This document shows, in pieces, positions 3,627-63,612 of a stretch of 64,000 nucleotides of DNA; the stretch's first letter is position 1, and every line of letters starts with the position of its first letter. A program made the position numbers and the translations under genes. Under the pieces are notes generated by a model. The model was given only the letters and a program-made list of their open reading frames with translations, was not told the DNA's origin and did no database searches. The DNA comes from Patescibacteria group bacterium (GTDB lineage: Bacteria; Patescibacteriota; Minisyncoccia; Phycocordibacterales; UBA12079), in the NCBI GenBank assembly GCA_018817595.1, contig JAHITU010000007.1, forward strand, positions 8,775 through 72,774, in the 5' to 3' direction.

Positions 3627-5618
3627 TTATTCTGAAATCAATTCAAAATCGATTACTTGTTTGTCTAAATCAGTTTTGACTAATTTTACTCTAACCTTGT
3701 CTCCTAGGGTATGCTTTACCCTTGTTTTTTGTCCCACTAGGCGATAATGCTTAGTATCTAATTCATAGTAATCATCCTGAAGAGAACGAACACTAATCAT
3801 TCCTTCAGCTCCGTTTTCTGCTTGGACATACACACCCCATTTTGTAATTCCAGAAATAATTCCTTCGAATTCCTGACCAATTTTACTCGACATTAACTCT
3901 GTGAACTTATATTTCGTAGAAGCTCTTTCGGCTGTTACGGCTGCAATTTCTTGTTGAGTGGATTTGCTGGTTAATTCTTTGTATTTTTTAATAGAACGAG
4001 GAGAAAGATTTTTCCCTGCTAAATAATTTTTCATCAAACGATGCACCATCATATCAGGGTAACGACGAATAGGTGAAGTGAAGTGAGTATAATGTTTGAA
4101 TCCTAAACCAAAATGCCCAATATTTTGAGTCGAGTAAATTGCCTTTGCCATTGATTTAAGCATAGCCGTAGCAATCAAATCTTCTTCTGGCAAACCTTCA
4201 ATTTTCATTAATAAATCATTCAATTCTTTTGAAGAAACTTTATTATCTTTGATTTTTAAATTGAATCCAATAGTTTTTAGGAACTCTGACAATTCTTTCA
4301 ATTGTTCTGTTTTAGGTACATCGTGAATTCTATAAACAAAAGGTAATTGAATCTTCAGTTTTTCTTCTTGATGACTTATATATTGGGCTACTTCGCGATT
4401 AGCTAAAAGCATAAAGTCTTCAATTAACTCATTAGTATCCATCATTTGCTTTTCGTAAACATCAATAGCCTTTCCGGTTTTGTCCAAAATAAATTTGTAT
4501 TCGTTTGATCCAAAGGAAATAGAACCTTTTTCGGTTCTGTCAGCTCGGAGAATTAGAGCCAATTCATTCAAGGTATTTAATTCCTTATAGAATTCACCAG
4601 CTTTATTATCCAAGGTTTCTTGAGCATTTTTGTAGGTGAATCTTTTGTCAGAATGAATAATAGTTTCTCCAAACCATCTAGCTTTTACTTGTGCATTTTT
4701 ATCTATTATGAAAACAGCAGAATAAGTCAATTTGTCTTCATTAGGATTAAGAGAACATAGGTTATTAGAAAGCACTTCAGGAAGCATCGGAATCGTACGG
4801 TCTATTAGATAAACAGAGGTACATCTAACAGTAGCTTCACGGTCTATTGGGGAGTCAATAGGAACATAGTGGGTTACATCAGCGATATGAACTCCAATTT
4901 CATAATCCCCATTTTCTAATTCTTTGAACGATAAAGCATCATCAAAATCCTTGGCGTCATCAGGGTCGATAGTAAAAGTAATTCTGTCTCGCATATCCTT
5001 TCTCTTAGGAATTTCTTGAGCGAAGTCTTTTAGAGCTTGTTTGGATATAACTTCGGCTTCAGCTTCGACACCTTCTGGAAAATCAGGTTCAAAACCTTTT
5101 TCATAAAGAATAGCTTGCATTTCAGTTTCATTGTCACCCTTATGTCCGATTACTTTAATTATTTTTCCTTGAGGATTTTTCTTTGGGTCATTCCATTCAG
5201 ACATTTCAGCTACGATTTTTACATCATGGCTGGGGATTTCTCCATCACTAAGGTCTAGGTCTAAACGGGGGTAAAATTTAATATCATCGGCAACTAAAAA
5301 ATAACCTTCATTATCTTTTCCTAAGGTTCCTACAAATTTAGTTTTAACTCTGTTTAATATTTCAGTAACTTTGGCTATTTTAGTCCCTGCCTGCCGAGAG
5401 GCATGGTTTCCTCTTTTAGCTACTTTGATTTTTACTATATCTCCATTTAGAGCAGTATTCAAATCAAAGTCAGAAATTTCAAAATCTCCGTGTTCGGTTT
5501 TCAAGAAACCACGCTTTCTTGTGGTTACTATAATATTACCTTCATAAAATTCTTGCTCTTTATCTTGAGATTTTTTATGTTTCTTTTCATATGTCTTGTT
5601 TTTCTTCATACCCCACAT
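3627..5618 (-). CDS. rnr: ribonuclease R (RNB-domain 3'-5' exoribonuclease with C-terminal S1 domain)
   Basis: 663 aa. RNB catalytic core and a C-terminal S1-like segment GIISGITKWGVYVQ...GMISVRSL. Confidence 0.85.
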   Translation of the reverse strand: MWGMKKNKTYEKKHKKSQDKEQEFYEGNIIVTTRKRGFLKTEHGDFEISDFDLNTALNGDIVKIKVAKRGNHASRQAGTKIAKVTEILNRVKTKFVGTLGKDNEGYFLVADDIKFYPRLDLDLSDGEIPSHDVKIVAEMSEWNDPKKNPQGKIIKVIGHKGDNETEMQAILYEKGFEPDFPEGVEAEAEVISKQALKDFAQEIPKRKDMRDRITFTIDPDDAKDFDDALSFKELENGDYEIGVHIADVTHYVPIDSPIDREATVRCTSVYLIDRTIPMLPEVLSNNLCSLNPNEDKLTYSAVFIIDKNAQVKARWFGETIIHSDKRFTYKNAQETLDNKAGEFYKELNTLNELALILRADRTEKGSISFGSNEYKFILDKTGKAIDVYEKQMMDTNELIEDFMLLANREVAQYISHQEEKLKIQLPFVYRIHDVPKTEQLKELSEFLKTIGFNLKIKDNKVSSKELNDLLMKIEGLPEEDLIATAMLKSMAKAIYSTQNIGHFGLGFKHYTHFTSPIRRYPDMMVHRLMKNYLAGKNLSPRSIKKYKELTSKSTQQEIAAVTAERASTKYKFTELMSSKIGQEFEGIISGITKWGVYVQAENGAEGMISVRSLQDDYYELDTKHYRLVGQKTRVKHTLGDKVRVKLVKTDLDKQVIDFELISE

Positions 5619-5742
5619 TATATGATAAAACTTTAAAATTGTCGCCTCATCGGCGACCCGCCGATGAGGCGGGAAAGAAAATAAAAAATGATTATTACTT
5701 ACAAAGTTTTGTGGTAAAATATAAAAAAATTAAAAAATAGAT

Positions 5743-11729: not shown

Positions 11730-11961
11730 AAATGATTAGGGGTCGTTCCTCTTAATAAAGATAATTGTAATCTTTAGGCAAAAATTAAAAAGCTAAGATA
11801 ACCGAGGTGCGACCCCTAATTTAAATTTTAAATTATGAAGTCCGATTTCTGTCTGCCCCTGCGCGCCGGCAGGCGTGGGCATAGGCAGGGGTTGGGGTGT
11901 TCAAATGGCTAAAACCTTAATAATAAATAGCCCAACCGGTTGGGCTATTTAATTTACTTCA

Positions 11962-18102: not shown

Positions 18103-18345
18103 GAATTATGATTTAAGAACGAATTTTACTCTGCAAAATAAATGAAAAGCCTGCGGACAGCCTGCCCACTCCTGCCGGCGCGCAGGGGCGGACAGGCGAC
18201 TTGAGGTGTTGGATTTCAACAATTTGGGCTTGATTTTTGGAGTAATGTCAGATATTCTAATTTAAAGAATAGTTCTGTTTTTCAATGTAATTTTTTAATT
18301 ATGTTGAAAATGTAATTTAACCTAGTAAATTAGAGGAGAGTATTT

Positions 18346-25701: not shown

Positions 25702-25733
25702 AAAAATACAGACACCCGGTGTCTGTATTTTTT
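25702..25733 (+). terminator. terminator hairpin ATACAGACACCCGGTGTCTGTAT + T-run
   Basis: Palindrome whose core GACACCCGGTGTC also occurs in the 59-61 kb leaders and inside dus. Confidence 0.6.
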
Positions 25734-25736
25734 AAT

Positions 25737-25840
25737 GCCCTTGTAGTTCAATGGATAGTCGCCTCATCGGCGACCCGCCGAAGAGGCGGGAACAAGACTT
25801 CTTTGAATTCATAATTTAAAGTATCTTCTTACTAAAATTT
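25737..25840 (+). repeat. partial 5' copy of tRNA-Arg (nt 1-22) fused to a GC-rich hairpin and a copy of nt 23-31, immediately upstream of the intact tRNA
   Basis: GCCCTTGTAGTTCAATGGATAG equals the first 22 nt of the tRNA at 25841. The hairpin CGCCTCATCGGCG ACC CGCCGAAGAGGCG also occurs at 5641-5675. Confidence 0.6.
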
Positions 25841-25912
25841 GCCCTTGTAGTTCAATGGATAGAACAAGACACTCCTAACGTCTAGATCTAGGTTCGATTC
25901 CTGGCAAGGGCA
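25841..25912 (+). tRNA. tRNA-Arg (anticodon CCT)
   Basis: Cloverleaf folded by hand: acceptor GCCCTTG/CAAGGGC, D-stem GTTC/GAAC, anticodon loop CTCCTAA, T-loop TTCGATT, no encoded CCA. Confidence 0.85.
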
Positions 25913-26116
25913 CAAAAGGAGAAATCAGTAGCGATCTAGCTACTGATTTTTCTTTTCTTTTGTAGGTCTTGCCAGGAATCGAAAGACGGAGGCGCGAAGC
26001 CAATTTGTGAGCTTGCGAACAAATTGAAGCCGAGTTCGGGTCGAAGGTTCTTATTAAAATTTGAGCTTACGAAAAATTTTAATTAGAAACCTGTGACCGA
26101 TTCCTGGCAAGGGCAC
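25913..26116 (+). ncRNA. conserved structured element trailing tRNA-Arg; ends in a direct copy of the tRNA 3' end and holds an inverted copy internally
   Basis: Terminator hairpin, inverted CTTGCCAGGAATCG, conserved CGAAAGACGGAGGCGCGAAGCC...GCCGAGTTCGGGTCGAAG...TTTGAGC...GAAAAA...AATTAG core, then GACCGATTCCTGGCAAGGGCAC. The same architecture follows the Phe, Glu and Gln tRNAs. Confidence 0.6.
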
Positions 26117-26645: not shown

Positions 26646-26936
26646 AAAACAGCTAAAAAGCTGTTTTTTATTTTGTGCTGAGGGGCGGGCTCGGTCACGA
26701 ATCACTAAGTCTTTTATTTCGCCCTGCCTACCCCTGCGCGCCGGCAGGCGTGGACAGGCGTGGGCAGGCAGGTTCGCTCATAAAAAACAAAGTGTTCTCA
26801 ACCCCGTCTCGGCTTTTTCTTTTGCTTCGCTCCAGAAAATAGACCTGTGACTTTCGAGCCCGCACGAAAGCAAAGAAGTTTGCTTTCTCCTTCATCCCAA
26901 AATAAAAAAACAGCTAAAAAGCTGTTTTTTATTTTG
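26646..26936 (-). ncRNA. tRNA-Phe trailing structured element (minus strand) carrying an extra GC-rich repeat insert
   Basis: On the minus strand it reads tRNA, terminator, conserved core (GCCGAGACGGGGTTGAGAACACTTTG...ACTTAGTGATTCGTGACCGAGCCCGCCCCTCAGCACA), then a second copy of the terminator hairpin. It contains the GCCCCTGCGCGCCGGCAGG-type GC-rich block. Confidence 0.6.
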
Positions 26937-41032: not shown

Positions 41033-41153
41033 TTCGTCTTTGCGACCCAGCACTTTGTTATAATCATATAAATAAAATTTATTAAAAATAAATAATAATT
41101 GTAAGATAAAAAATAAGTAATTTTATTCAAAGTGCTGGGGAAGCAATCTAGAA
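41033..41153. repeat. MITE-like repeat CGTCTTTGCGAC-CCAGCACTTTG ... CAAAGTGCTGGGG-AAGCAATCTAGAAA
   Basis: Conserved termini and 12-bp inverted arms. Lies immediately upstream of the Bro-N gene. Confidence 0.55.
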
Positions 41154-41176
41154 AAAGTTTTGATAAAATTTCTATA

Positions 41177-42001
41177 ATGAAAACTAATAAAAAAAATTTA
41201 AAAAAAATAAAGCCAATAATTTTTCAAGAAAAAGAGGTTCGAAGAATTTGGGATGAGAAAAAAGAGGAGTGGTATTTTTCTGTTATTGATATTGTTTCAA
41301 TTCTTACTGAACAAATTGATTTTAAAAAAGCTAAAAGTTATTGGACAACTCTTAAAAAACGATTAAAAGATGAAGGAAGTCAGTTGGTCACAGATTGTGA
41401 CCAACTGAAATTAAAATCTGCCGATGGGAAATTTTATTTAACAGATGTAGCAGACACAAGAACTATTTTTAGATTAGTTCAATCAATTCCTAGTAAAAAA
41501 GCAGAACCTTTTAAGTTATGGTTGGCTAAAGTTGGAAATGAAAGAATAAATGAAATTTATGATCCTGAAATAGCTATTAATCGAGCAATTAAAACATATC
41601 AAAGAAAAGGTTATGACGAAAAATGGATAAACCAAAGATTAAAATCAATTGAAATTAGAAAAGAATTAACTGATGAATGGAATAAACGAGGAGTAACCAA
41701 AGATGTGGAATACGCTATTTTAACTAATGAGATTTTAAAATCTTGGAGTGAGATGAATACTCAAGAATATAAGAAATTTAAGGGTTTAAAGAAAGATTCT
41801 TTGAAAGATAATATGACTAATTTAGAATTAGTTTTAAATATGTTAGCAGAAACTTCTACTACAGAAATTAGTAAGACAGAAAAACCACAAAATTTTAATG
41901 AAAATAAAAAAGTAGCTAAAAAAGGAGGAACTATAGCAAAAAAAGCAAAAATTGAGCTAGAAAAGAAGTTAAAAAGAAAGATATTAAAAGGTAAAAATTA
42001 A
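41177..42001 (+). CDS. Bro-N/KilA-N domain protein (DinD-like, phage antirepressor-type)
   Basis: N-terminal F..KEVRRIWDEKKEEWYFSVIDIVSIL Bro-N signature and a lysine-rich C-terminus. ORF start trimmed out of the upstream repeat. Confidence 0.65.
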   Translation: MKTNKKNLKKIKPIIFQEKEVRRIWDEKKEEWYFSVIDIVSILTEQIDFKKAKSYWTTLKKRLKDEGSQLVTDCDQLKLKSADGKFYLTDVADTRTIFRLVQSIPSKKAEPFKLWLAKVGNERINEIYDPEIAINRAIKTYQRKGYDEKWINQRLKSIEIRKELTDEWNKRGVTKDVEYAILTNEILKSWSEMNTQEYKKFKGLKKDSLKDNMTNLELVLNMLAETSTTEISKTEKPQNFNENKKVAKKGGTIAKKAKIELEKKLKRKILKGKN

Positions 42002-46867: not shown

Positions 46868-46906
46868 ATTTTGCTTTTTTATTTCAAATTGATATAATCC
46901 GAGCTA

Positions 46907-47263
46907 ATTGGCTCTATCGTCTAACGGTTATTGGAATTAAAAGCAAATTTCTTTGCTTTTAATCCGGTTCTGAGCGATAGCGAAGAAATGACCGATGTTT
47001 ACGAGGTCATAGGATAAGCCTTCGTTGAAGGCGATGTCTTTGAAATATAGCAGACAATGTTAATTTAAAATATAATATATAGTAATGGCCTTATCGTCTA
47101 ATGGTTATTGGAATTAAAAGCAAATTTCTTTGCTTTTAATCCGGTTCTGAGCGATAGCGAAGAAATGACCGATGTTTACGAGGTCATAGGATAAGCCTTC
47201 GTTGAAGGCGATGTCTTTGAAATATAGTAGACAATGTTAATTTAAAATATAATATATAGTAAT
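46907..47263 (+). repeat. two tandem 181-bp units, each starting with a copy of tRNA-Glu nt 1-22, directly upstream of the intact tRNA-Glu
   Basis: Units at 46907-47087 and 47088-47263 are about 98% identical. Each holds GGC(T/C)(C/T)TATCGTCTAA(C/T)GGTTA plus inverted copies of tRNA segments (GAAGGCGATGTC is the reverse complement of tRNA GACATCGCCTTC). Confidence 0.7.
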
Positions 47264-47335
47264 GGCCTTATCGTCTAATGGTTAGGACATCGCCTTCTCA
47301 AGGCGGCAATCCGGGTTCGATTCCCGGTAAGGTCA
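47264..47335 (+). tRNA. tRNA-Glu (anticodon CTC)
   Basis: Acceptor GGCCTTA/TAAGGTC, D-stem GTCT/GGAC, anticodon loop TTCTCAA, T-loop TTCGATT. Confidence 0.85.
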
Positions 47336-47518
47336 CAAATCAAAAATAACAGTCTTTCTGACTGTTATTTTTTGATTCTAGTGAATCTCCTGTGGAGATA
47401 ATCGAAGGTCGGAAGAAAATCCGAGATTTTCTGAGACGGGGTCGAGAACACTTTGTAAAATTTGAGCAAAGCGAAAAATTTTACTTAGTGATTCGTGATC
47501 GATTCCCGGTAAGGTCAC
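47336..47518 (+). ncRNA. conserved structured element trailing tRNA-Glu; ends in a direct copy of the tRNA 3' end
   Basis: Terminator, CGAAGGTCGGAAGAAAATCC...GAGACGGGGTCGAGAACACTTTG...TTTGAGCAAAGCGAAAAA...ACTTAGTGATTCGTGATCGATTCCCGGTAAGGTCAC. Confidence 0.6.
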
Positions 47519-47811
47519 AAAAAACAAAAACCTACACTTTATCGACCGTCAATAAAGTGTAGGTTTTTGTTTTGTTTTGCAAAAAGTAGGGGTAGCACCC
47601 CTACTTTTTAAATTATAAGATATTGTTGAAAAACTTCATAATTTCTTTATTTTTTCTTTACTGAAACTTCATAATAAATATGTATAAATTTGTAATTAGT
47701 GTGTTCTTACAGAAATGAAAGGAGGTGATATACTATTCTTTTGAGAGTTATCTTAGTAAATATTTTTTCACTAAATTTAAACCTAAATTAAAAAAGACCT
47801 AGGAGGTCAAA

Positions 47812-51748: not shown

Positions 51749-51954
51749 AAGAAAACCACCGAACCTATCCTTGCGGAACGCAGTGATAAACACTACAGTT
51801 TGGTTCGGTGGCACTTCCTTAATTGAAACTATAACATTTTATATCAAAAAATCAAGTAAACTGTGGATAACTAAAACATTGTAAATAAAATTTAAATTAG
51901 CTCTAAAAGAGCAGAACGGCTCAACGACTTGAGCTATTTAAAATAAATGAAAAT

Positions 51955-59010: not shown

Positions 59011-59220
59011 ATTTAATTATTTTAGTATTAAGTATTATGTAGTAAGTATTATGGAGGCCCGACTCCTGCTTATGGCAGGTTCAGGAAAATATTTTTCATC
59101 GTATGCTCGATACGACTCAAAATATTTTCCTGCTCTTCCTCGAACTGTATTCAATTTTGGGATTATTTAAAAAATTAAGCAATTAACTTTAAGGTCGGCA
59201 TTACCGACCTTTTTAAATTA

Positions 59221-59638
59221 TTCATTACAGCGCTCCAAGCGCTGTAATCATGTCGCAAAATTACTTGGACACCCGGTGTCCAAGTGGTTTTAATTTCTAG
59301 AAATTCTGATTGCGTCAAAATTAATCACAGTTCGCTAAAGGTGAACCATCTCTTTGAGCCTGTCCGTCTCAGATGTGGTGATAGCGAAACTATAACTATA
59401 GATGGTTACAAAATCAATCCAGAATCCATTCAACGAAGCAAGTCAGAAAATAATTTAAACTATTCCAATTGATTGGAATAGTTAAAAAATATCGCAAAAT
59501 TACTTGGACACCCGGTGTCCAATGATTCTAATTTTTAGAAATATTGATTTTTCTTGCTAATTCCTTAAATTTAATGTATAAAATCAACAGAAGTTTGGAT
59601 GAAAATTGAATAAATATTAAATAAAAAGGGGAGTAAAG
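59221..59638 (+). promoter_or_regulatory. conserved ~420-bp leader module, copy 1 (structured, with two palindromic operator-like sites overlapping promoter-like hexamers)
   Basis: Hairpin TTACAGCGCTCCAAGCGCTGTAA. ACTTGGACACCCGGTGTCCAAGT at 59263-59285 and 59502-59522. TTGGAC-17-TTTAAT geometry. Nearly identical to 60645-61106. Confidence 0.6.
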
Positions 59639-60592
59639 ATGAAAGCTTTAAAACCGAAAAGTTCAGAATTGTTTGTAGATTCTGTTAAAAGTAAAAAGGA
59701 ATGGATTATGAAAATAATTCTCTTTATTTTGGGAATTTTTATTTTGTTCTGTCTTTGGTGTGTCGGAACTGAGGCTGTGGCTGGAATAACCCAGCAAGAA
59801 ATAACCAATGACGGGGTAAACTCAGGAATGGGCGAAATCCCACAGATTTATAAAAAGGATGGAAAATTCTTTATTCATAAATCTCCAGCGGATATGGTTG
59901 TTGATGAGGCTCCAAAAGAATGGGGGATTTCGTCAGAAGATCAAGAGTCATTGGCTCTTGGTAAAAAGAGTTTTGTCTCTGTTTCTTCAAAGAAAATTGA
60001 ATTTATTTTTTGGGGAAAGTGGATCCCTGAAACCTTGACCGTTATTTACAAAAAAATAGTTAGAATTGAGGATGGAAAATTTTTTCTTTATCATCTTGAT
60101 CCTGTTATGGAACCTAAAATCCAATTTGTACTTCTAACCCTATCCTTCTTTGTCTTTAGTTGTGGTCTGGTTAATGGAAGATTTGCAGGTGTAAATAATG
60201 GTGGATTCTTATGGATTCCTCTTTTTTTATTAGGTCCTATAATTGTGTTGTTAATTATTTTCCTAATTCCATTAATTAATAAAATAATTTTAGAATTCGA
60301 AATTATTTTATTAGCAATTATTTTTTGTTTTATTTTATTATATTACTTATTCCATAAAAACAAAAAAAAAATAGTAACAACTAATGTAATTTCAATTTCA
60401 ATAATCATAATAATAATTGCAGTTTCATTTTTTTCTTGCAATTATTTACAGAATTTTTACTATTTTTTCCTTTTATATTTTCTTTCATATTTTATTTCTT
60501 TTTTCTTTACTCGAAGAAAAGAAGTAAAAGAAAAGAGGAAAGACATGAATTTTTCAAGAATAAGTGGAGTAGGGGGTTCTAAAAAAAATTAA
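59639..60592 (+). CDS. hypothetical polytopic membrane protein (paralog A)
   Basis: N-terminal signal anchor, soluble domain of about 110 aa, several TM helices. Paralog of the 61107-61877 product. Confidence 0.6.
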   Translation: MKALKPKSSELFVDSVKSKKEWIMKIILFILGIFILFCLWCVGTEAVAGITQQEITNDGVNSGMGEIPQIYKKDGKFFIHKSPADMVVDEAPKEWGISSEDQESLALGKKSFVSVSSKKIEFIFWGKWIPETLTVIYKKIVRIEDGKFFLYHLDPVMEPKIQFVLLTLSFFVFSCGLVNGRFAGVNNGGFLWIPLFLLGPIIVLLIIFLIPLINKIILEFEIILLAIIFCFILLYYLFHKNKKKIVTTNVISISIIIIIIAVSFFSCNYLQNFYYFFLLYFLSYFISFFFTRRKEVKEKRKDMNFSRISGVGGSKKN

Positions 60593-60644
60593 TCAGTGAA
60601 TACAACCCCAACCGGTGAGCCTTGTGCCCACCGGTTGTTTTATT

Positions 60645-61106
60645 TATTACAGCACTCCGAGCGCTGTAATCATGTCGCAAAATTACTTGGACACCCGGTG
60701 TCCAAGTGGTTTTAATTTATAGAAATTCTGATTTCGTCAAAATTAATCACAGTTCGCTAAAGGTGAACCATCTCTTTGAGCCTGTCCGTCTCAGATGTGG
60801 TGATAGCGAAACTATAACTATAGATGGTTACAAAATCAATCCAGAATCTATTCGTCTTTGAGAGGTGAATGGATTTTTGGTTTTTGTAAAAACCAAAAAT
60901 CCATTCAACGAGGCAAGTCAGAAAATAATTTAAACTATTCCAATTGATTGGAATAGTTAAAAAATGTCACAAAATTACTTGGACACCCGGTGTCCAATGA
61001 TTCTAATTTTTAGAAATTTAATATTTCTTGCTAATTCCATAAATTTAATGTATAAAATCAACAGAAGTTTGGATGAAAATTGAATAAATAATTTATAAAA
61101 AGGGGA
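60645..61106 (+). promoter_or_regulatory. conserved leader module, copy 2 (with a 52-bp hairpin insertion at about 60849-60906)
   Basis: >95% identical to 59221-59638. Palindromes at 60685-60707 and 60977-60997. Extra perfect inverted repeat GAATGGATTTTTGGTTTTTGTAAAAACCAAAAATCCATTC. Confidence 0.6.
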
Positions 61107-61877
61107 TTGAAGATGAAAACTTTAAAGTTTAAGGGCTCGGATTTGTTCGTGGATTCCATGAGAAACAACAAAAAAGTTTTGATAAAAACCTTTTTGATCA
61201 TACTGGGCTTGTTTATTTTATTTTGTATTTGTTGTGCTATTTGTGAAGCAAATGAGCAAGTATCGAATTTAAATCAGCAGGGGATTTTCTCTTCTGAAAT
61301 CTCTGAGGTTAAAAATGTTTTTAAAACAAGGACGGGGTGGGTAGTGTATAATGATTACCCTGACCAGGTTTTCATAGACCCTTTGGCCGATTGGGATTAT
61401 ATGAGAATTGATCCTAATTATCATAAAGAATTAAAAAAGGTAATCTTAGGCCAAGAAAGTTGTTATTCTGCCACTAAATTAAAAAGATATGTTGTTTTCT
61501 GGGGAAAATTAGTTCCGGAAGTGAGGAGTAAAACCATTTATCGAAAAATTTTTGTAAGGGATGGACAATGGGGTATTGTTGAATCTAATCCTTTTCACAG
61601 TAATGAAACCAATGCTTTCTTTTTATTGGTTCCTTTATTTGTGATTTTATTGGGAATTGTAACATGGATTTTTTTTAAGGATGACAGTCGAATAGGATTA
61701 TCGTTTTTTATATTGATAATTTCAGCTATGTCATATATTTTTAGTTTAGATTATTGGATGAACAGTTTATATTTTTTAATTTTTATTTCTTTGGGATTTT
61801 TCTTAGGCCTTCTGAACGAAAAGAAAAATAAAAAACCTTATTCAAAAACAGGCTCAACTCAAAGTGCTGAGTTGTAG
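61107..61877 (+). CDS. hypothetical polytopic membrane protein (paralog B)
   Basis: Same architecture as paralog A. The sequences are strongly diverged, unlike their leaders. Confidence 0.6.
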   Translation: MKMKTLKFKGSDLFVDSMRNNKKVLIKTFLIILGLFILFCICCAICEANEQVSNLNQQGIFSSEISEVKNVFKTRTGWVVYNDYPDQVFIDPLADWDYMRIDPNYHKELKKVILGQESCYSATKLKRYVVFWGKLVPEVRSKTIYRKIFVRDGQWGIVESNPFHSNETNAFFLLVPLFVILLGIVTWIFFKDDSRIGLSFFILIISAMSYIFSLDYWMNSLYFLIFISLGFFLGLLNEKKNKKPYSKTGSTQSAEL

Positions 61878-63207: not shown

Positions 63208-63612
63208 CTATAAAAATAAAGACACTAGAATGAATATTCTAGTGTCTTTATTTTTATTTGTCCGGCAGGGGCTCGAAAGACGAAGGCTGCGAAGCCAGTT
63301 TTTCGAAGAAAAACTGTAGCCGAGTCGGGGTCGCGAGTACTTATTATTTTTGAGTGCGAAGCACGAAAAAAATAATTAGTAACTCGTGACCGAGTCCCTG
63401 TCCGGCAACATATAAAATATAGACCCTAAAGCACTAGCTTTAGGGTCTATATTTTATTTGTCGGACAGGGACTTGAAACGAGCGAAATATATTTTTCTGA
63501 AGCGTTAGCGGAAGAAAAATTTGAGTGAGCAGGGTCGCGAGTTCTTAATAGAATTGAGTCCGTAGGACGAAAATTATATTTAGAACTGGAGACCGAGTCC
63601 CTGTAAAACAAC
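63208..63612 (+). ncRNA. two tandem copies of the tRNA-trailing structured element, each ending in a copy of the tRNA-Gln 3' end
   Basis: Copy 1 runs to about 63409 (…AATTAGTAACTCGTGACCGAGTCCCTGTCCGGCAAC). Copy 2 runs to about 63612 (…GAGACCGAGTCCCTGTAAAACAAC). Each has a terminator hairpin and an inverted TGTCCGGCAGGGGCTCG / TGTCGGACAGGGACTTG. Confidence 0.6.

Follow-up and report, generated by a model that had tools for sequence, protein, structure and literature searches.

A tandem array of gene-less, cassette-like units upstream of a tRNA-Glu gene in a Patescibacteria genome

Background

The closest described counterparts of the elements reported here are temperate phages, ICEs and genomic islands whose integration into tRNA genes proceeds by Campbell-type crossover. 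Their inserts are bounded by direct repeats of a tRNA segment while an intact tRNA is kept, the functional tRNA is rebuilt from element-borne sequence, and the displaced fragment comes to lie beside the old flank. Serial insertion of such elements gives rise to tandem arrays. Known integrases use the anticodon loop, the T-loop or the 3' end of the tRNA. The partial tRNA genes that integration leaves behind have been described (PMC9897764).

The elements considered here, referred to as cassettes, resemble these systems in their direct repeats, rebuilt tRNA and displaced fragment, and in the occurrence of empty sites in relatives (loci L147, L151 and L154). However, they are only 100–180 bp long and encode neither an integrase nor any other protein. 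One cassette type replaces the 5' end and the promoter of the tRNA gene, with a variable junction, and the insert itself is a conserved structured module. Cassettes also differ in lying on both ends of the same gene, in accompanying most of the tRNAs examined, and in being absent from viral contig collections.

MITEs and other cis-mobilisable elements carried between att sites share with the cassettes a small, non-coding, repeated and structured nature, and both are presumably mobilised in trans. In contrast to MITEs, cassettes have neither terminal inverted repeats of fixed sequence nor a target duplication of fixed length. Their repeats are the neighbouring tRNA's own end, differing from one tRNA to the next, and their copies within a genome are old and diverged. 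REP/RAYT and IS200/IS605 systems likewise involve hairpin DNA that folds on one strand, GC-rich hairpins inserted into loops are a shared trait, and a Y1 transposase lies beside one related cassette (L144). Cassettes, however, carry target duplications, their hairpins are unrelated to those flanking that transposase, and the DNA analysed here is transposase-free. Lastly, tandem promoters and duplications formed by unequal crossover fit the step from one unit to two or more and the observed polymorphism, but leave unexplained how the unit originated and why it has a foreign promoter region and a conserved module.

The cassettes were found in a stretch of 64,000 nucleotides (the window) from a Patescibacteria group bacterium (assembly GCA_018817595.1, contig JAHITU010000007.1, positions 8,775 to 72,774 of the forward strand). 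Coordinates below are counted from its first letter, and loci compared with it carry L numbers. A search of the published literature found no description of such cassettes.

Structure of the tRNA-Glu array

The tRNA-Glu(CTC) gene of the window (47264–47336, + strand) is intact, does not encode its CCA, and is preceded by two head-to-tail units. The first-pass annotation had described this array as two units of 181 bp that are about 98% identical. The array and its identity are real, but the period is shorter: TRF returns a single array at 46915–47284 with a period of 177, 2.1 copies and 98% matches. In register, unit 1 spans 46910–47086 and unit 2 spans 47087–47263, each of 177 nt, so the intact tRNA does begin one period downstream, immediately after unit 2. 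The units differ at four places only (unit positions 4, 5, 16 and 142).

Each unit consists, in order, of a copy of the tRNA 5' end, a three-hairpin module of about 83 nt (module A), a hairpin tail, and an AT-rich, promoter-like stretch that stops just short of the next tRNA-like start. Direct repeats of the tRNA-Glu 5' end begin at 46910, 47087 and 47264. The prefix had been given as 22 nt; it is present but 21 nt long, since the units have T at position 22 where the tRNA has G. The displaced 5' end in unit 1, GGCTCTATCGTCTAACGGTTA (46910–46930, +), is the allele of relatives' tRNA-Glu genes, while the copy of nt 1–21 in unit 2 (47087–47107, +) is identical to the window's own tRNA-Glu.

Module A follows at 46934–47016 and 47111–47193 (both +, each with a cmsearch score of 86.3 bits). 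The tail hairpin, GCCTTC-GTT-GAAGGC followed by GATGTC, lies at 47018–47038, with a second copy at 47195–47215 (both +). Its final 12 nt are antisense to tRNA nt 23–34: as first reported, GAAGGCGATGTC (47027–47038 and 47204–47215) is the exact reverse complement of that segment (47286–47297). The predicted duplex between tail copy 2 and the 5' half of the tRNA has an energy of −36.4 kcal/mol (z = −7.8). A second proposed inverted copy of the tRNA 5' end, GGATAAGCC, is ruled out as tRNA-derived, as its AGGAUAAG/AGGAGG is the conserved 3' end of module A, which is also found after rpsI. The notion that the units are essentially self-derived from the tRNA does not hold. Only the first 21 nt and the tail of about 20 nt are tRNA-related, and the core of about 83 nt is an independent module.

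The 177-bp units contain no ORF, and neither ARAGORN nor Infernal calls a tRNA in them. Beyond nt 1–21 and a degenerate, anticodon-arm-like tail, the remaining parts of a tRNA (T arm and 3' acceptor strand, in order) are absent from the units, which are not pseudo-tRNAs, split tRNAs or intron-containing tRNAs. A tRNA-like fold in which GAGGTCA mimics the 3' acceptor strand was rejected because comparative data place GAGGTCA in the covarying 3' arm of the third module hairpin. Small ORFs downstream of AGGAGG, read by eye, were likewise discarded, none being conserved. The tRNA introns of the same phylum (RF00028) are, like the cassettes, a lineage-specific oddity of tRNA genes with a self-folding RNA. 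They lie in the anticodon loop (position 35/36) and match RF00028, however, whereas here intron models match nothing and the tRNAs are uninterrupted.

Examination for −35 and −10 elements, suggested in the first-pass annotation, revealed promoter-like hexamers at the close of each unit. These are CAGACA, 16 nt and TAATAT in unit 1 (47051–47078, +; TATAAT at 47071–47076), and TAGACA, 16 nt and TAATAT in unit 2 (47228–47255, +; TATAAT at 47248–47253), the latter ending 8–10 nt before the tRNA. The only difference between the bodies of the two units falls in the −35-like hexamer. A promoter scan gave 7 sites against 4.2 expected, a non-significant excess in such AT-rich DNA. The native, or old, tRNA-Glu promoter is an extended −10 element, TGATATAAT (46890–46898, +), situated 11 nt upstream of unit 1. 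The promoter region of the cassette differs from this native region and is no copy of it.

Module A is a conserved structured family

Module A comprises a first hairpin (hp1), a GGU linker, a second hairpin with tandem G-A and a GAUA loop (hp2), and a third with the loop CCGAUGUUUACGAGG (hp3), followed by AGGAUAAG. The exact 15-mer CCGATGTTTACGAGG plus AGGA occurs at 23 metagenome loci, of which about 20 are real. Some of these place it ahead of tRNA-Glu(CTC/TTC), Ser(TGA/GCT) or Ile(GAT) genes; in others it comes immediately behind the stop codon of rpsI, or behind another protein gene, and no tRNA is close by. A covariance model adds diverged copies that precede further tRNAs for Ser and Gln. 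These occurrences outside the window lie in other Paceibacteria.

Comparative data support the proposed fold. Across the alignment, 95.9% of cells are paired (69% in shuffles), and 19 of 23 pairs show compensatory changes. Between the window and L128, too, hp2 has changed in a compensatory manner. With the alignment fitted to the covariance model, the covariation score is 0.66 compared with 0.18 for shuffled alignments; none of 500 shuffles reaches 0.66, and slid controls give at most 0.11. The ratio of G-U to A-C is 10 to 1, which indicates that folding takes place on the tRNA-sense strand. Module A is an independent, covarying and conserved structured family. Against Rfam 15 (including tRNA, T-box, hammerhead and group I intron), the units give nothing at E ≤ 10 except hairpin noise, and only tRNAs and DUF3800-IX reach threshold.

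Between the window and L144, identity is 65% at the third codon positions of MurJ, 94.5% in the module core and 95% in the tail, and the tail is 100% identical between the window and L128. Core and tail therefore diverge more slowly than synonymous sites, which indicates that the encoded RNA, or the folded strand, is under selection. Features that bear on a putative transcription of module A are the promoter-like hexamers and the strand-specific G-U pairs. Copies of the modules within one genome are diverged and give no sign of recent transposition.

By eye only, hp2, hp3 and the apex of stem P3 in the 3' module described below resemble the tandem sheared G-A arrangement of K-turns and K-loops, known from box C'/D' RNAs and some riboswitches. 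They can be read as ...UGAG[hairpin]CGAA... or CC-GA-U-G[UUUA]C-GA-GG, compatible with tandem G-A pairs. Unlike a canonical K-turn, however, the module hairpins lack a 3-nt bulge.

Orthologous loci and copy number

The array lies between MurJ and DnaE, and the orthologous MurJ–tRNA-Glu loci of relatives contain 0, 1, 2 or at least 3 units, which bears out the earlier suggestion to look for copy-number polymorphism. L147 is empty, with TGATATAAT, 12 nt, the tRNA itself and the old terminator in succession. L144 has one unit, with TGATATAAT 11–13 nt upstream of the unit's tRNA-like start. L128 has two diverged units, the first of them about 42 nt downstream of TGATATAAT. Arrays of a shorter type, without module A, occur in L145 (2 units) and L149, and L149/L150 have at least 3 units. 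The empty sites are compatible with change in either direction, insertion or precise deletion.

The displaced 21-mer of unit 1 is identical to nt 1–21 of tRNA-Glu in L128, L144, L145 and L147, agreeing with the relatives' allele at each of the three variable positions. Of the four differences between the units, three fall within these 21 of 177 nt (binomial p ~0.006). The distal 3' copy in L145 borders on a terminator that is the ortholog of the one at the empty site. In the window, L144, L145 and L153, the distal copies lie next to the native promoter or the old terminator.

The junctions of 5' cassettes vary across loci, falling at tRNA nt 10, 11, 12, 18, 21 or 22. The tail is 95–100% conserved across orthologous loci, and L141 has an exact 19-nt inverted copy of tRNA nt 22–40 in the same place as the window's tail. 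Some loci have the tRNA-related tail inverted and others have it in direct orientation (L125, L131, L139 and L142), which points to additional rearrangements. Dual-strand guides of the TIGR-Tas or bridge-RNA type, brought to mind by the direct and inverted tRNA segments, were rejected because the inverted segment is not universal. TIGR units are 36-nt arrays beside Tas genes (PMC12045711), unlike the cassettes.

Partial copies of this kind are not chance matches. Copies of an 18-mer, with at most 2 mismatches and within 700 nt upstream, were found for 12 of the 174 tRNAs examined, the window included. Removal of one locus-edge artefact and one neighbouring paralogous tRNA-Leu leaves 10 real partial copies, compared with an estimated chance expectation of about 0.003.

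Cassettes at other tRNA genes of the window

A partial 5' copy had also been reported upstream of tRNA-Arg(CCT) (25841–25913, +), and each of its parts is confirmed. At 25737–25840 (+), tRNA nt 1–22 (25737–25758) are joined to a GC hairpin (25759–25790) that is 97% identical to 5641–5675, then to a copy of nt 23–30 (25791–25798) and a 42-nt spacer. A glutaredoxin gene lies upstream, its terminator immediately adjacent to the copy. Orthologous tRNA-Arg loci are empty in L151 and L154 and filled in L153, where the same GC hairpin is present; in filled loci the 5' copy occupies the place that the tRNA holds in empty ones.

All four tRNAs of the window carry mirror-image cassettes on their 3' side, so that partial tRNA copies do occur on both flanks of tRNA genes, and the 5' units mirror the 3' trailing elements as originally claimed. 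On the 5' side, the distal direct copy comes first, then the structured module, the proximal inverted copy, a spacer and the tRNA; on the 3' side this order is reversed. Downstream of tRNA-Glu, a cassette-borne terminator hairpin (47342–47372, +) is followed by a 3' cassette (47378–47519, +) with a weak inverted copy of the 3' end, module B (GGGTCG...TTAGTGATTCGTGATCGA) and a distal copy of nt 56 to the end (47500–47519), which repeats 47318–47337. This distal copy has the new tRNA allele, not the old. The 3' cassette of tRNA-Arg (25960–26116, +) consists of an inverted copy, module B and a distal 3' copy. That of tRNA-Phe (26675–26898, − strand) has a GC-rich insert in module B, and tRNA-Gln has two in tandem (63257–63409 and 63457–63611; 63257–63611 overall, +).

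Module B has more than 117 genome matches at about 20 tRNA identities. Pairs of its stem P3 are split among alternatives (UA 40/CG 30, GC 50/AU 18 and similar). The 3' cassettes start at the T-loop CGA in every matched locus, which holds partly by construction because CGA is in the search pattern. Two interpretations of the 3' module were discarded. Stem P1, formed by the inverted copy and the distal copy, is not its selected helix, since the inverted copy fits the real tRNA end better than the distal one. A hammerhead or other small ribozyme, suggested by a GAAA junction, GUC, UGA..GA and a three-way junction, is excluded by a core that misfits CUGANGA/GAAA/UH and by ribozyme models that score nothing. 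Similar, so far undescribed cassettes flank many tRNA genes in these tiny bacteria.

Proposed origin

With moderate confidence, the array is interpreted as a non-autonomous cassette that integrated through a tRNA-identical segment and was then doubled by unequal crossover. Each 177-bp unit would be one gene-less cassette copy inside a formerly simple promoter–tRNA junction. The native promoter now sits in front of the outermost displaced 21-mer, and cassette sequence precedes the real tRNA. Entry and exit may each involve a single crossover of Campbell type through the tRNA-identical segment, with homologous recombination or a recombinase acting in trans as candidate agents. The tRNA position of the junction varies, however, which speaks against a single site-specific point of crossover. 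No recombinase was found in or beside the cassettes of the window.

In its new arrangement, the native tRNA promoter would drive a module RNA, and the cassette's promoter-like stretch would restart transcription at the next tRNA-like 5' end, and so drive the tRNA. The array, with its equal-length head-to-tail copies, high identity and polymorphic count, is of the kind that unequal crossover or slippage produces. In the window, the second copy would have arisen in this way between the 21-nt repeats, with the exchange after position 16. On the 3' side, the corresponding product would be a new 3' end with its terminator, followed by an inverted copy, module B and, next to the old terminator, the displaced former 3' end.

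A further-reaching reading is conceivable, though doubtful. Here, the cassettes would be genes for a new class of structured RNAs that mimic tRNA ends, spread between tRNA genes by recombination through the mimic, and swap in their own promoter or terminator. The 5' type would yield an RNA that opens with the tRNA's own first 21 nt, made from the captured tRNA promoter. The 3' type would yield a three-way-junction RNA with a tRNA-like end, its closing helix corresponding to stacked acceptor and T stems (a minihelix). Such RNAs might engage the tRNA-handling machinery (RNase P or Z, the CCA-adding enzyme or synthetases) or a K-loop-binding protein.

Alternative explanations

The rival that survives best, although unlikely, is a non-mobile, cis-regulatory pre-tRNA leader, in which the antisense tail, the SD-like AGGAGG and the K-loop-like hairpin control precursor folding, RNase P processing or stability, and duplication only adds copies. 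Conservation of the tail between orthologs and folding on the tRNA-sense strand both agree with this, as do predicted tail–tRNA duplexes far above shuffles in the window, L128, L127, L138 and L010 (z −4 to −8). In addition, the modules of L041 and L138 lie 27–39 nt from the tRNA, a spacing probably too short for a separate promoter, which would place the module within the precursor. However, antisense pairing is missing wherever the tail is a direct copy (L125, L131, L139 and L142), and the module also follows rpsI and another protein gene in tRNA-free surroundings. A leader would also have to be dispensed with in L147, a close relative with zero units, and it leaves the displaced 21-mer on the old promoter unexplained.

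It is very unlikely that the units arose by plain local tandem duplication of a promoter and tRNA nt 1–21, through slippage or unequal crossover followed by drift, with no element and no function. The head-to-tail array at 98% identity, its variable copy number and the shorter-unit arrays without module A (L145 and L149) are what such a process would produce, and it accounts for the step from one unit to two. As the origin of the unit itself, it is already contradicted: the cassette's promoter region is no copy of the native one, the core of about 83 nt belongs to a covarying family found at other tRNAs and rpsI in other genomes, and core and tail evolve more slowly than synonymous sites.

Mobilisation of the hairpins as single-stranded DNA by a Y1 (HUH) transposase of IS200/IS605 or RAYT type, the modules being REP-like or miniature derivatives, appears quite improbable. 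The closest relative, L144, does encode a 215-aa Y1_Tnp protein (29.5 bits, cut-off 23) between MurJ and the tRNA-Glu cassette; it weakly matches the model for REP-associated tyrosine transposases, and GC hairpins flank its gene. The units are rich in hairpins that fold on one strand, and small hairpins (AAAGCAAA....TTTGCTTT and GC-rich ones) are nested in other hairpins and in partial tRNA copies. Yet Y1 transposases are known to insert without target duplication, whereas 10–30 nt of tRNA are duplicated here, at junctions without a common motif. Moreover, modules A and B bear no relation to the hairpins beside the L144 transposase, and no Y1 gene is present in the window or, L144 aside, in about 150 related loci. 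What this mechanism probably accounts for is the GC-rich hairpins rather than the cassettes.

Highly improbable, too, is an origin as scars (attL/attR) left behind when integrase-bearing prophages or genomic islands were deleted from the tRNA genes they formerly occupied. Displaced copies do keep their old flanks, and partial tRNA copies beside tRNA genes are a classic signature of integration (PMC9897764). The cassettes are small, however, and one finds the same modules at about 20 tRNA identities and more than 117 genome loci; in about 150 loci examined, the repeats enclose no integrase. Targeting of the 5' end with replacement of the promoter is also atypical of known integrases. An origin from phage attP sites was rejected in turn: in 2.9 million viral contigs, the patterns of modules A and B had no real match, and the 3' pattern had a single chance match in a high-GC phage.

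An assembly artefact, that is, an expanded or collapsed repeat, is scarcely credible: although short-read contigs of the window's and related populations stop inside arrays (L002, L146 and L150) and L149 has an N gap, the copies differ at four sites in an evolutionarily sensible pattern, L127 and L133 are identical yet come from different projects, and L128, L141 and L144 have arrays too. The array is not an assembly loop, since its copies differ and relatives' independent assemblies, in which both orthologous and paralogous arrays occur, show the same architecture.

Implications

If the cassette interpretation is correct, Patescibacteria with tiny genomes tolerate or exploit gene-less elements of less than 200 bp, which insert at the two ends of tRNA genes that are essential and single-copy, and supply them with other promoters and terminators in place of their own. 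The cassettes would then be the smallest known elements that dock at tRNA genes, and a rare case of 5'-end targeting. Mobility aside, the analysis reveals two structured, RNA-like families that are conserved in many Paceibacteria but missing from Rfam; module A has a 15-nt loop that is invariant. Evolving more slowly than synonymous sites in streamlined genomes, the modules are good candidates for new functional RNAs tied to tRNA expression or processing.

In practical terms, the arrays can confuse tRNA annotation, and they break short-read assemblies, so the two units of the window are a minimum copy number.

A tandem array in front of tRNA-Glu

The repeats beside tRNA genes in the window point to two families of structured cassettes flanking tRNA genes in Paceibacteria, previously undescribed. 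These cassettes are inserts between a tRNA gene and its original promoter (5') or terminator (3'). In the window, which has a G+C content of 31% and belongs to a 74-kb Patescibacteria contig (ENA ERZ27247128 k141_50138), TRF finds a single long-period array (46915-47284; period 177, 2.1 copies, 98% matches). In register with the tRNA, this comprises an outermost unit 1 (46910-47086) and a unit 2 (47087-47263), which differ at four positions (4, 5, 16, and 142). The first-pass annotation had described tandem units about 98% identical, with an intact tRNA-Glu one period on, and both statements hold: tRNA-Glu(CTC) occupies 47264-47336 (ARAGORN and Infernal). An inverted tRNA-Glu segment was also correctly reported, being an exact 12-nt match (GAAGGCGATGTC / GACATCGCCTTC). 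The period is 177 bp instead of 181, and identity to the tRNA extends over 21 nt instead of 22.

Each unit consists of the 21-mer, three hairpins, a GC hairpin, and an AT-rich stretch, in that order. The three-hairpin core (module A, about 83 nt) comprises hp1 (GGAAUUAAAAGCAAA-UUUC-UUUGCUUUUAAUCC), hp2 behind a GGU linker (UUCU-GA-GC-GAUA-GC-GA-AGAA), and hp3 (AUGA-CCGAUGUUUACGAGG-UCAU), followed by AGGAUAAG. The tail, related to tRNA-Glu nt 23-34, is the GC hairpin GCCUUC-GUU-GAAGGC, then GAUGUC. The AT-rich end reads TAGACA, 16 nt, TAATAT (or TATAAT), and stops 8-10 nt short of the next tRNA-like start. Folding of the unit is better than that of shuffled controls (z = -3.6 to -3.9). Upstream of unit 1, at a distance of 11 nt, is an extended -10 element (TGATATAAT, 46890-46898).

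Module A as a structured family

The hp3 loop is also present upstream of tRNA-Ser in a GTDB genome (L041), and of the 23 loci retrieved from metagenomes with CCGATGTTTACGAGGNNNNAGGA, about 20 are genuine. There, module A lies upstream of tRNA-Glu(CTC or TTC), tRNA-Ser(TGA or GCT), and tRNA-Ile(GAT), each time preceded by a copy of that tRNA's own first 11-21 nt. It is also found behind a dockerin-domain protein gene and, in three genomes, right behind the stop codon of rpsI (Ribosomal_S9): L121 1319-1400, L135 1738-1818, and two tandem copies in L123 (7216-7296 and 7335-7415). At rpsI, the final 14 nt of the coding sequence and their complement form hp1, which encloses the stop codon; where a codon has changed synonymously, the opposite arm carries the compensating change. 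With a covariance model derived from 15 members, diverged copies are recovered upstream of further tRNA-Ser and tRNA-Gln genes, with 10-22 nt of the tRNA duplicated.

Across 25 distinct sequences, 95.9% of module A's cells are paired, compared with 69% in shuffles, and both sides have changed in 19 of 23 pairs. The covariation score is 0.66 versus 0.18, a value reached by none of 500 shuffles, and slid controls do not exceed 0.11. Since G-U pairs outnumber A-C pairs 10 to 1, it is the tRNA-sense strand that folds. Between orthologs, the core and tail are 94.5-100% identical, compared with 65% at MurJ third codon positions, and in hp2 the window and L128, a relative's tRNA-Glu locus, differ by compensatory changes; the folded strand is therefore under selection. 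The cassette looks to encode an RNA under selection. Rfam 15 holds no family matching the units, in the window or in six other loci, and literature searches brought up no description of these cassettes, the closest publications being on group I introns within tRNA genes of Patescibacteria (PMC13011429) and on the tRNA gene fragments that integrated elements leave behind (PMC9897764).

Filled and empty sites at orthologous loci

Orthologous tRNA-Glu loci were found by tracing the upstream MurJ protein into relatives. The order MurJ, tRNA-Glu(CTC), ..., DnaE is conserved and the tRNA region variable, with the copy-number polymorphism that the first-pass annotation had proposed looking for. L147 (MurJ 77% amino acid identity) has no unit, only TGATATAAT, 12 nt, the tRNA, and a terminator directly behind. 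L144 (88%) has one window-type unit, the whole block being inverted, and L128 (81%) has two diverged units. L145 (79%) carries two shorter units of about 93 nt without module A (tRNA nt 1-17, AATTAGAATATAG, a GGAC...GTCC hairpin, and an AT-rich stretch). L149/L150 (77%) have at least three of this shorter type, preceded by what remains of the tail of the long unit, and with an N gap or contig end within the array.

The distance from TGATATAAT to the outermost 21-mer downstream of it is 11-13 nt in the window and L144; in L147, the tRNA itself follows at an equal distance, and in L128, the first unit starts about 42 nt downstream. The outermost copy therefore stands where the tRNA 5' end originally was. 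In agreement with this, the 21-mer of unit 1, GGCTCTATCGTCTAACGGTTA, is the tRNA-Glu 5' end of L128, L144, L145, and L147; GGCCTTATCGTCTAATGGTTA occurs in unit 2 and the window's tRNA-Glu, whose 3' acceptor strand carries compensating changes. Were the units purely a cis-regulatory leader, the conserved antisense tail would be explained, but the non-tRNA contexts, the empty sites, and the displaced 21-mer would not, making this reading rather doubtful.

Three of the four unit differences fall within the 21 nt (binomial p about 0.006, our own arithmetic). This allele pattern implies that a block of module, tail, promoter region, and new 21-mer doubled after the tRNA had gained its present allele, as expected for unequal crossover between two 21-nt repeats with the exchange past position 16. 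The doubling in the window is ordinary recombination, and the cassette is the object of interest; plain duplication accounts for the second copy and for nothing beyond it, and is improbable as an explanation of the array.

The tRNA-Glu locus is a recombination hot spot. Relative to MurJ, L144, L145, and L147 have the block of promoter, tRNA-Glu, cassettes, and original terminator in inverted orientation; in L128 and L149, its orientation is that of the window (47264-47336 region). Five kb upstream of the locus, at 41132-42001(+), lies a 289-aa ORF with a Bro-N domain (Pfam), a domain common in phage and mobile-element proteins.

tRNA-Arg shows the same pattern of empty and filled sites. The reported 5' duplication was borne out: 25737-25758 corresponds to tRNA nt 1-22, the GC hairpin at 25759-25790 is a 97% match to 5641-5675, and 25791-25798 repeats nt 23-30. 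Among orthologs, located downstream of a glutaredoxin gene, L151 and L154 have no cassette on either side, with a terminator and AAT directly against the tRNA. L153 resembles the window: the 5' copy lies directly against the terminator and T or AAT, with the window's GC hairpin at nt 22|23 and another at 11|12, and about 40 nt of new sequence precede the tRNA. The acceptor allele is GCCCTTG in this copy versus GCTCTCG in the tRNA. The 5' copy of L152, which contains a GC hairpin at 11|12, lies directly against the tRNA.

Such GC-rich hairpins form two families (25759-25790, 5641-5675, about 26715-26775(-), 11856-11878, and 18160-18188), sit within loops of other hairpins and in the D-loop of partial tRNA copies, and are possibly REP-like elements. 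In the closest relative (L144, GCA_018902735.1), a 215-aa IS200-like Y1 transposase is encoded at 4185-4832, between MurJ and the inverted tRNA-Glu block, with GGGCACTCGGTGCCC GC hairpins on either side (29.5 bits for Pfam Y1_Tnp; the model of the REP-associated tyrosine transposase matches weakly). The window has no homolog. Y1-transposase hairpin elements probably account for the GC-rich hairpins nested in cassette regions, but not for the target duplications, and are quite improbable as the source of the cassettes.

Cassettes behind tRNA 3' ends

All four tRNAs of the window have an identical series on their 3' side: a terminator hairpin, an inverted copy of the tRNA 3' end, CGAAAG, a structured core (module B), and GTGAYCGA, which continues into a direct tRNA copy (T-loop CGA to end) with another terminator behind. 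These cassettes of about 130-150 nt lie at 25960-26116(+), 26675-26898(-), 47378-47519(+), 63257-63409(+), and 63457-63611(+), tRNA-Gln having two in tandem. The inverted copy pairs with the real tRNA end at a mean of -24.6 kcal/mol, versus -18.9 with the distal copy and -10.3 for shuffled sequence; the distal copy is often decayed. In L145, this copy adjoins a terminator orthologous to that behind the tRNA in empty L147, and the 3' signature is therefore that of the 5' side. The mirroring of 5' and 3' elements asserted by the first-pass annotation is thus real.

More than 117 stretches of GTDB genomes, Patescibacteria throughout, match the module B pattern, and for 94 of 120 matches, a tRNA on the same strand lies no more than 600 nt upstream. 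About 20 tRNA identities are represented, and each element's tail matches its tRNA. Stem P3 covaries (for example UA 40/CG 30) and has an invariant G-U, on the tRNA-sense strand. Rfam has no match to the element, and viral contigs gave no real match to the pattern. That the cassettes are scars of large integrase-bearing elements is unlikely, because they are uniformly small and absent from viral collections.

Entry, exit, and array growth

Cassettes separate tRNA genes from their original flanks and have copies of the tRNA's own end at their borders. At orthologous sites they are present, absent, or in differing numbers, and their cores are conserved structured families. The favoured reading is that entry and exit occur by a single crossover via the tRNA-identical segment, with arrays growing by unequal crossover. 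The module RNA would be expressed from the native promoter, and the tRNA driven by the cassette's promoter-like stretch. A simple site-specific mechanism is disfavoured by 5' junctions that vary (nt 10-22), by tails whose orientation (inverted or direct) differs between loci, and by the absence of a recombinase gene near cassettes and of dispersed near-identical copies. The cassette works like a miniature tRNA-integrating element, but without the integrase of one. Assembly artefact is excluded for the array's existence, although the exact copy number may be affected. Short-read contigs and scaffolds from several populations break within tRNA-flanking arrays (ends in L002, L146, and L150; N gap in L149), so that such assemblies give minimum copy numbers.

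Other features

A direct repeat of about 500 bp (59218-59714 and 60640-61188; 78-97% by segment) lies upstream of ORFs 59639-60592 and 61107-61877, and is rich in hairpins such as TTGGACACCCGGTGTCCAA, resembling the terminator at 25711-25729. A DUF3800-IX RNA motif (Rfam RF02968) is located at 51751-51812(-), scoring 47.2 bits (gathering score 36.8). At tRNA-Gln genes in L003 (about 2350-2640), L113 (-) (about 2500-2760), and L128 (-) (about 830-920), the 5' unit is shorter (tRNA nt 1-22, hp1, AATTTCCGTT). Perfect 12-nt inverted repeats lie close on both sides of the L113 gene. Downstream, partial internal tRNA copies come after a recurrent AGGAAATAGG motif.
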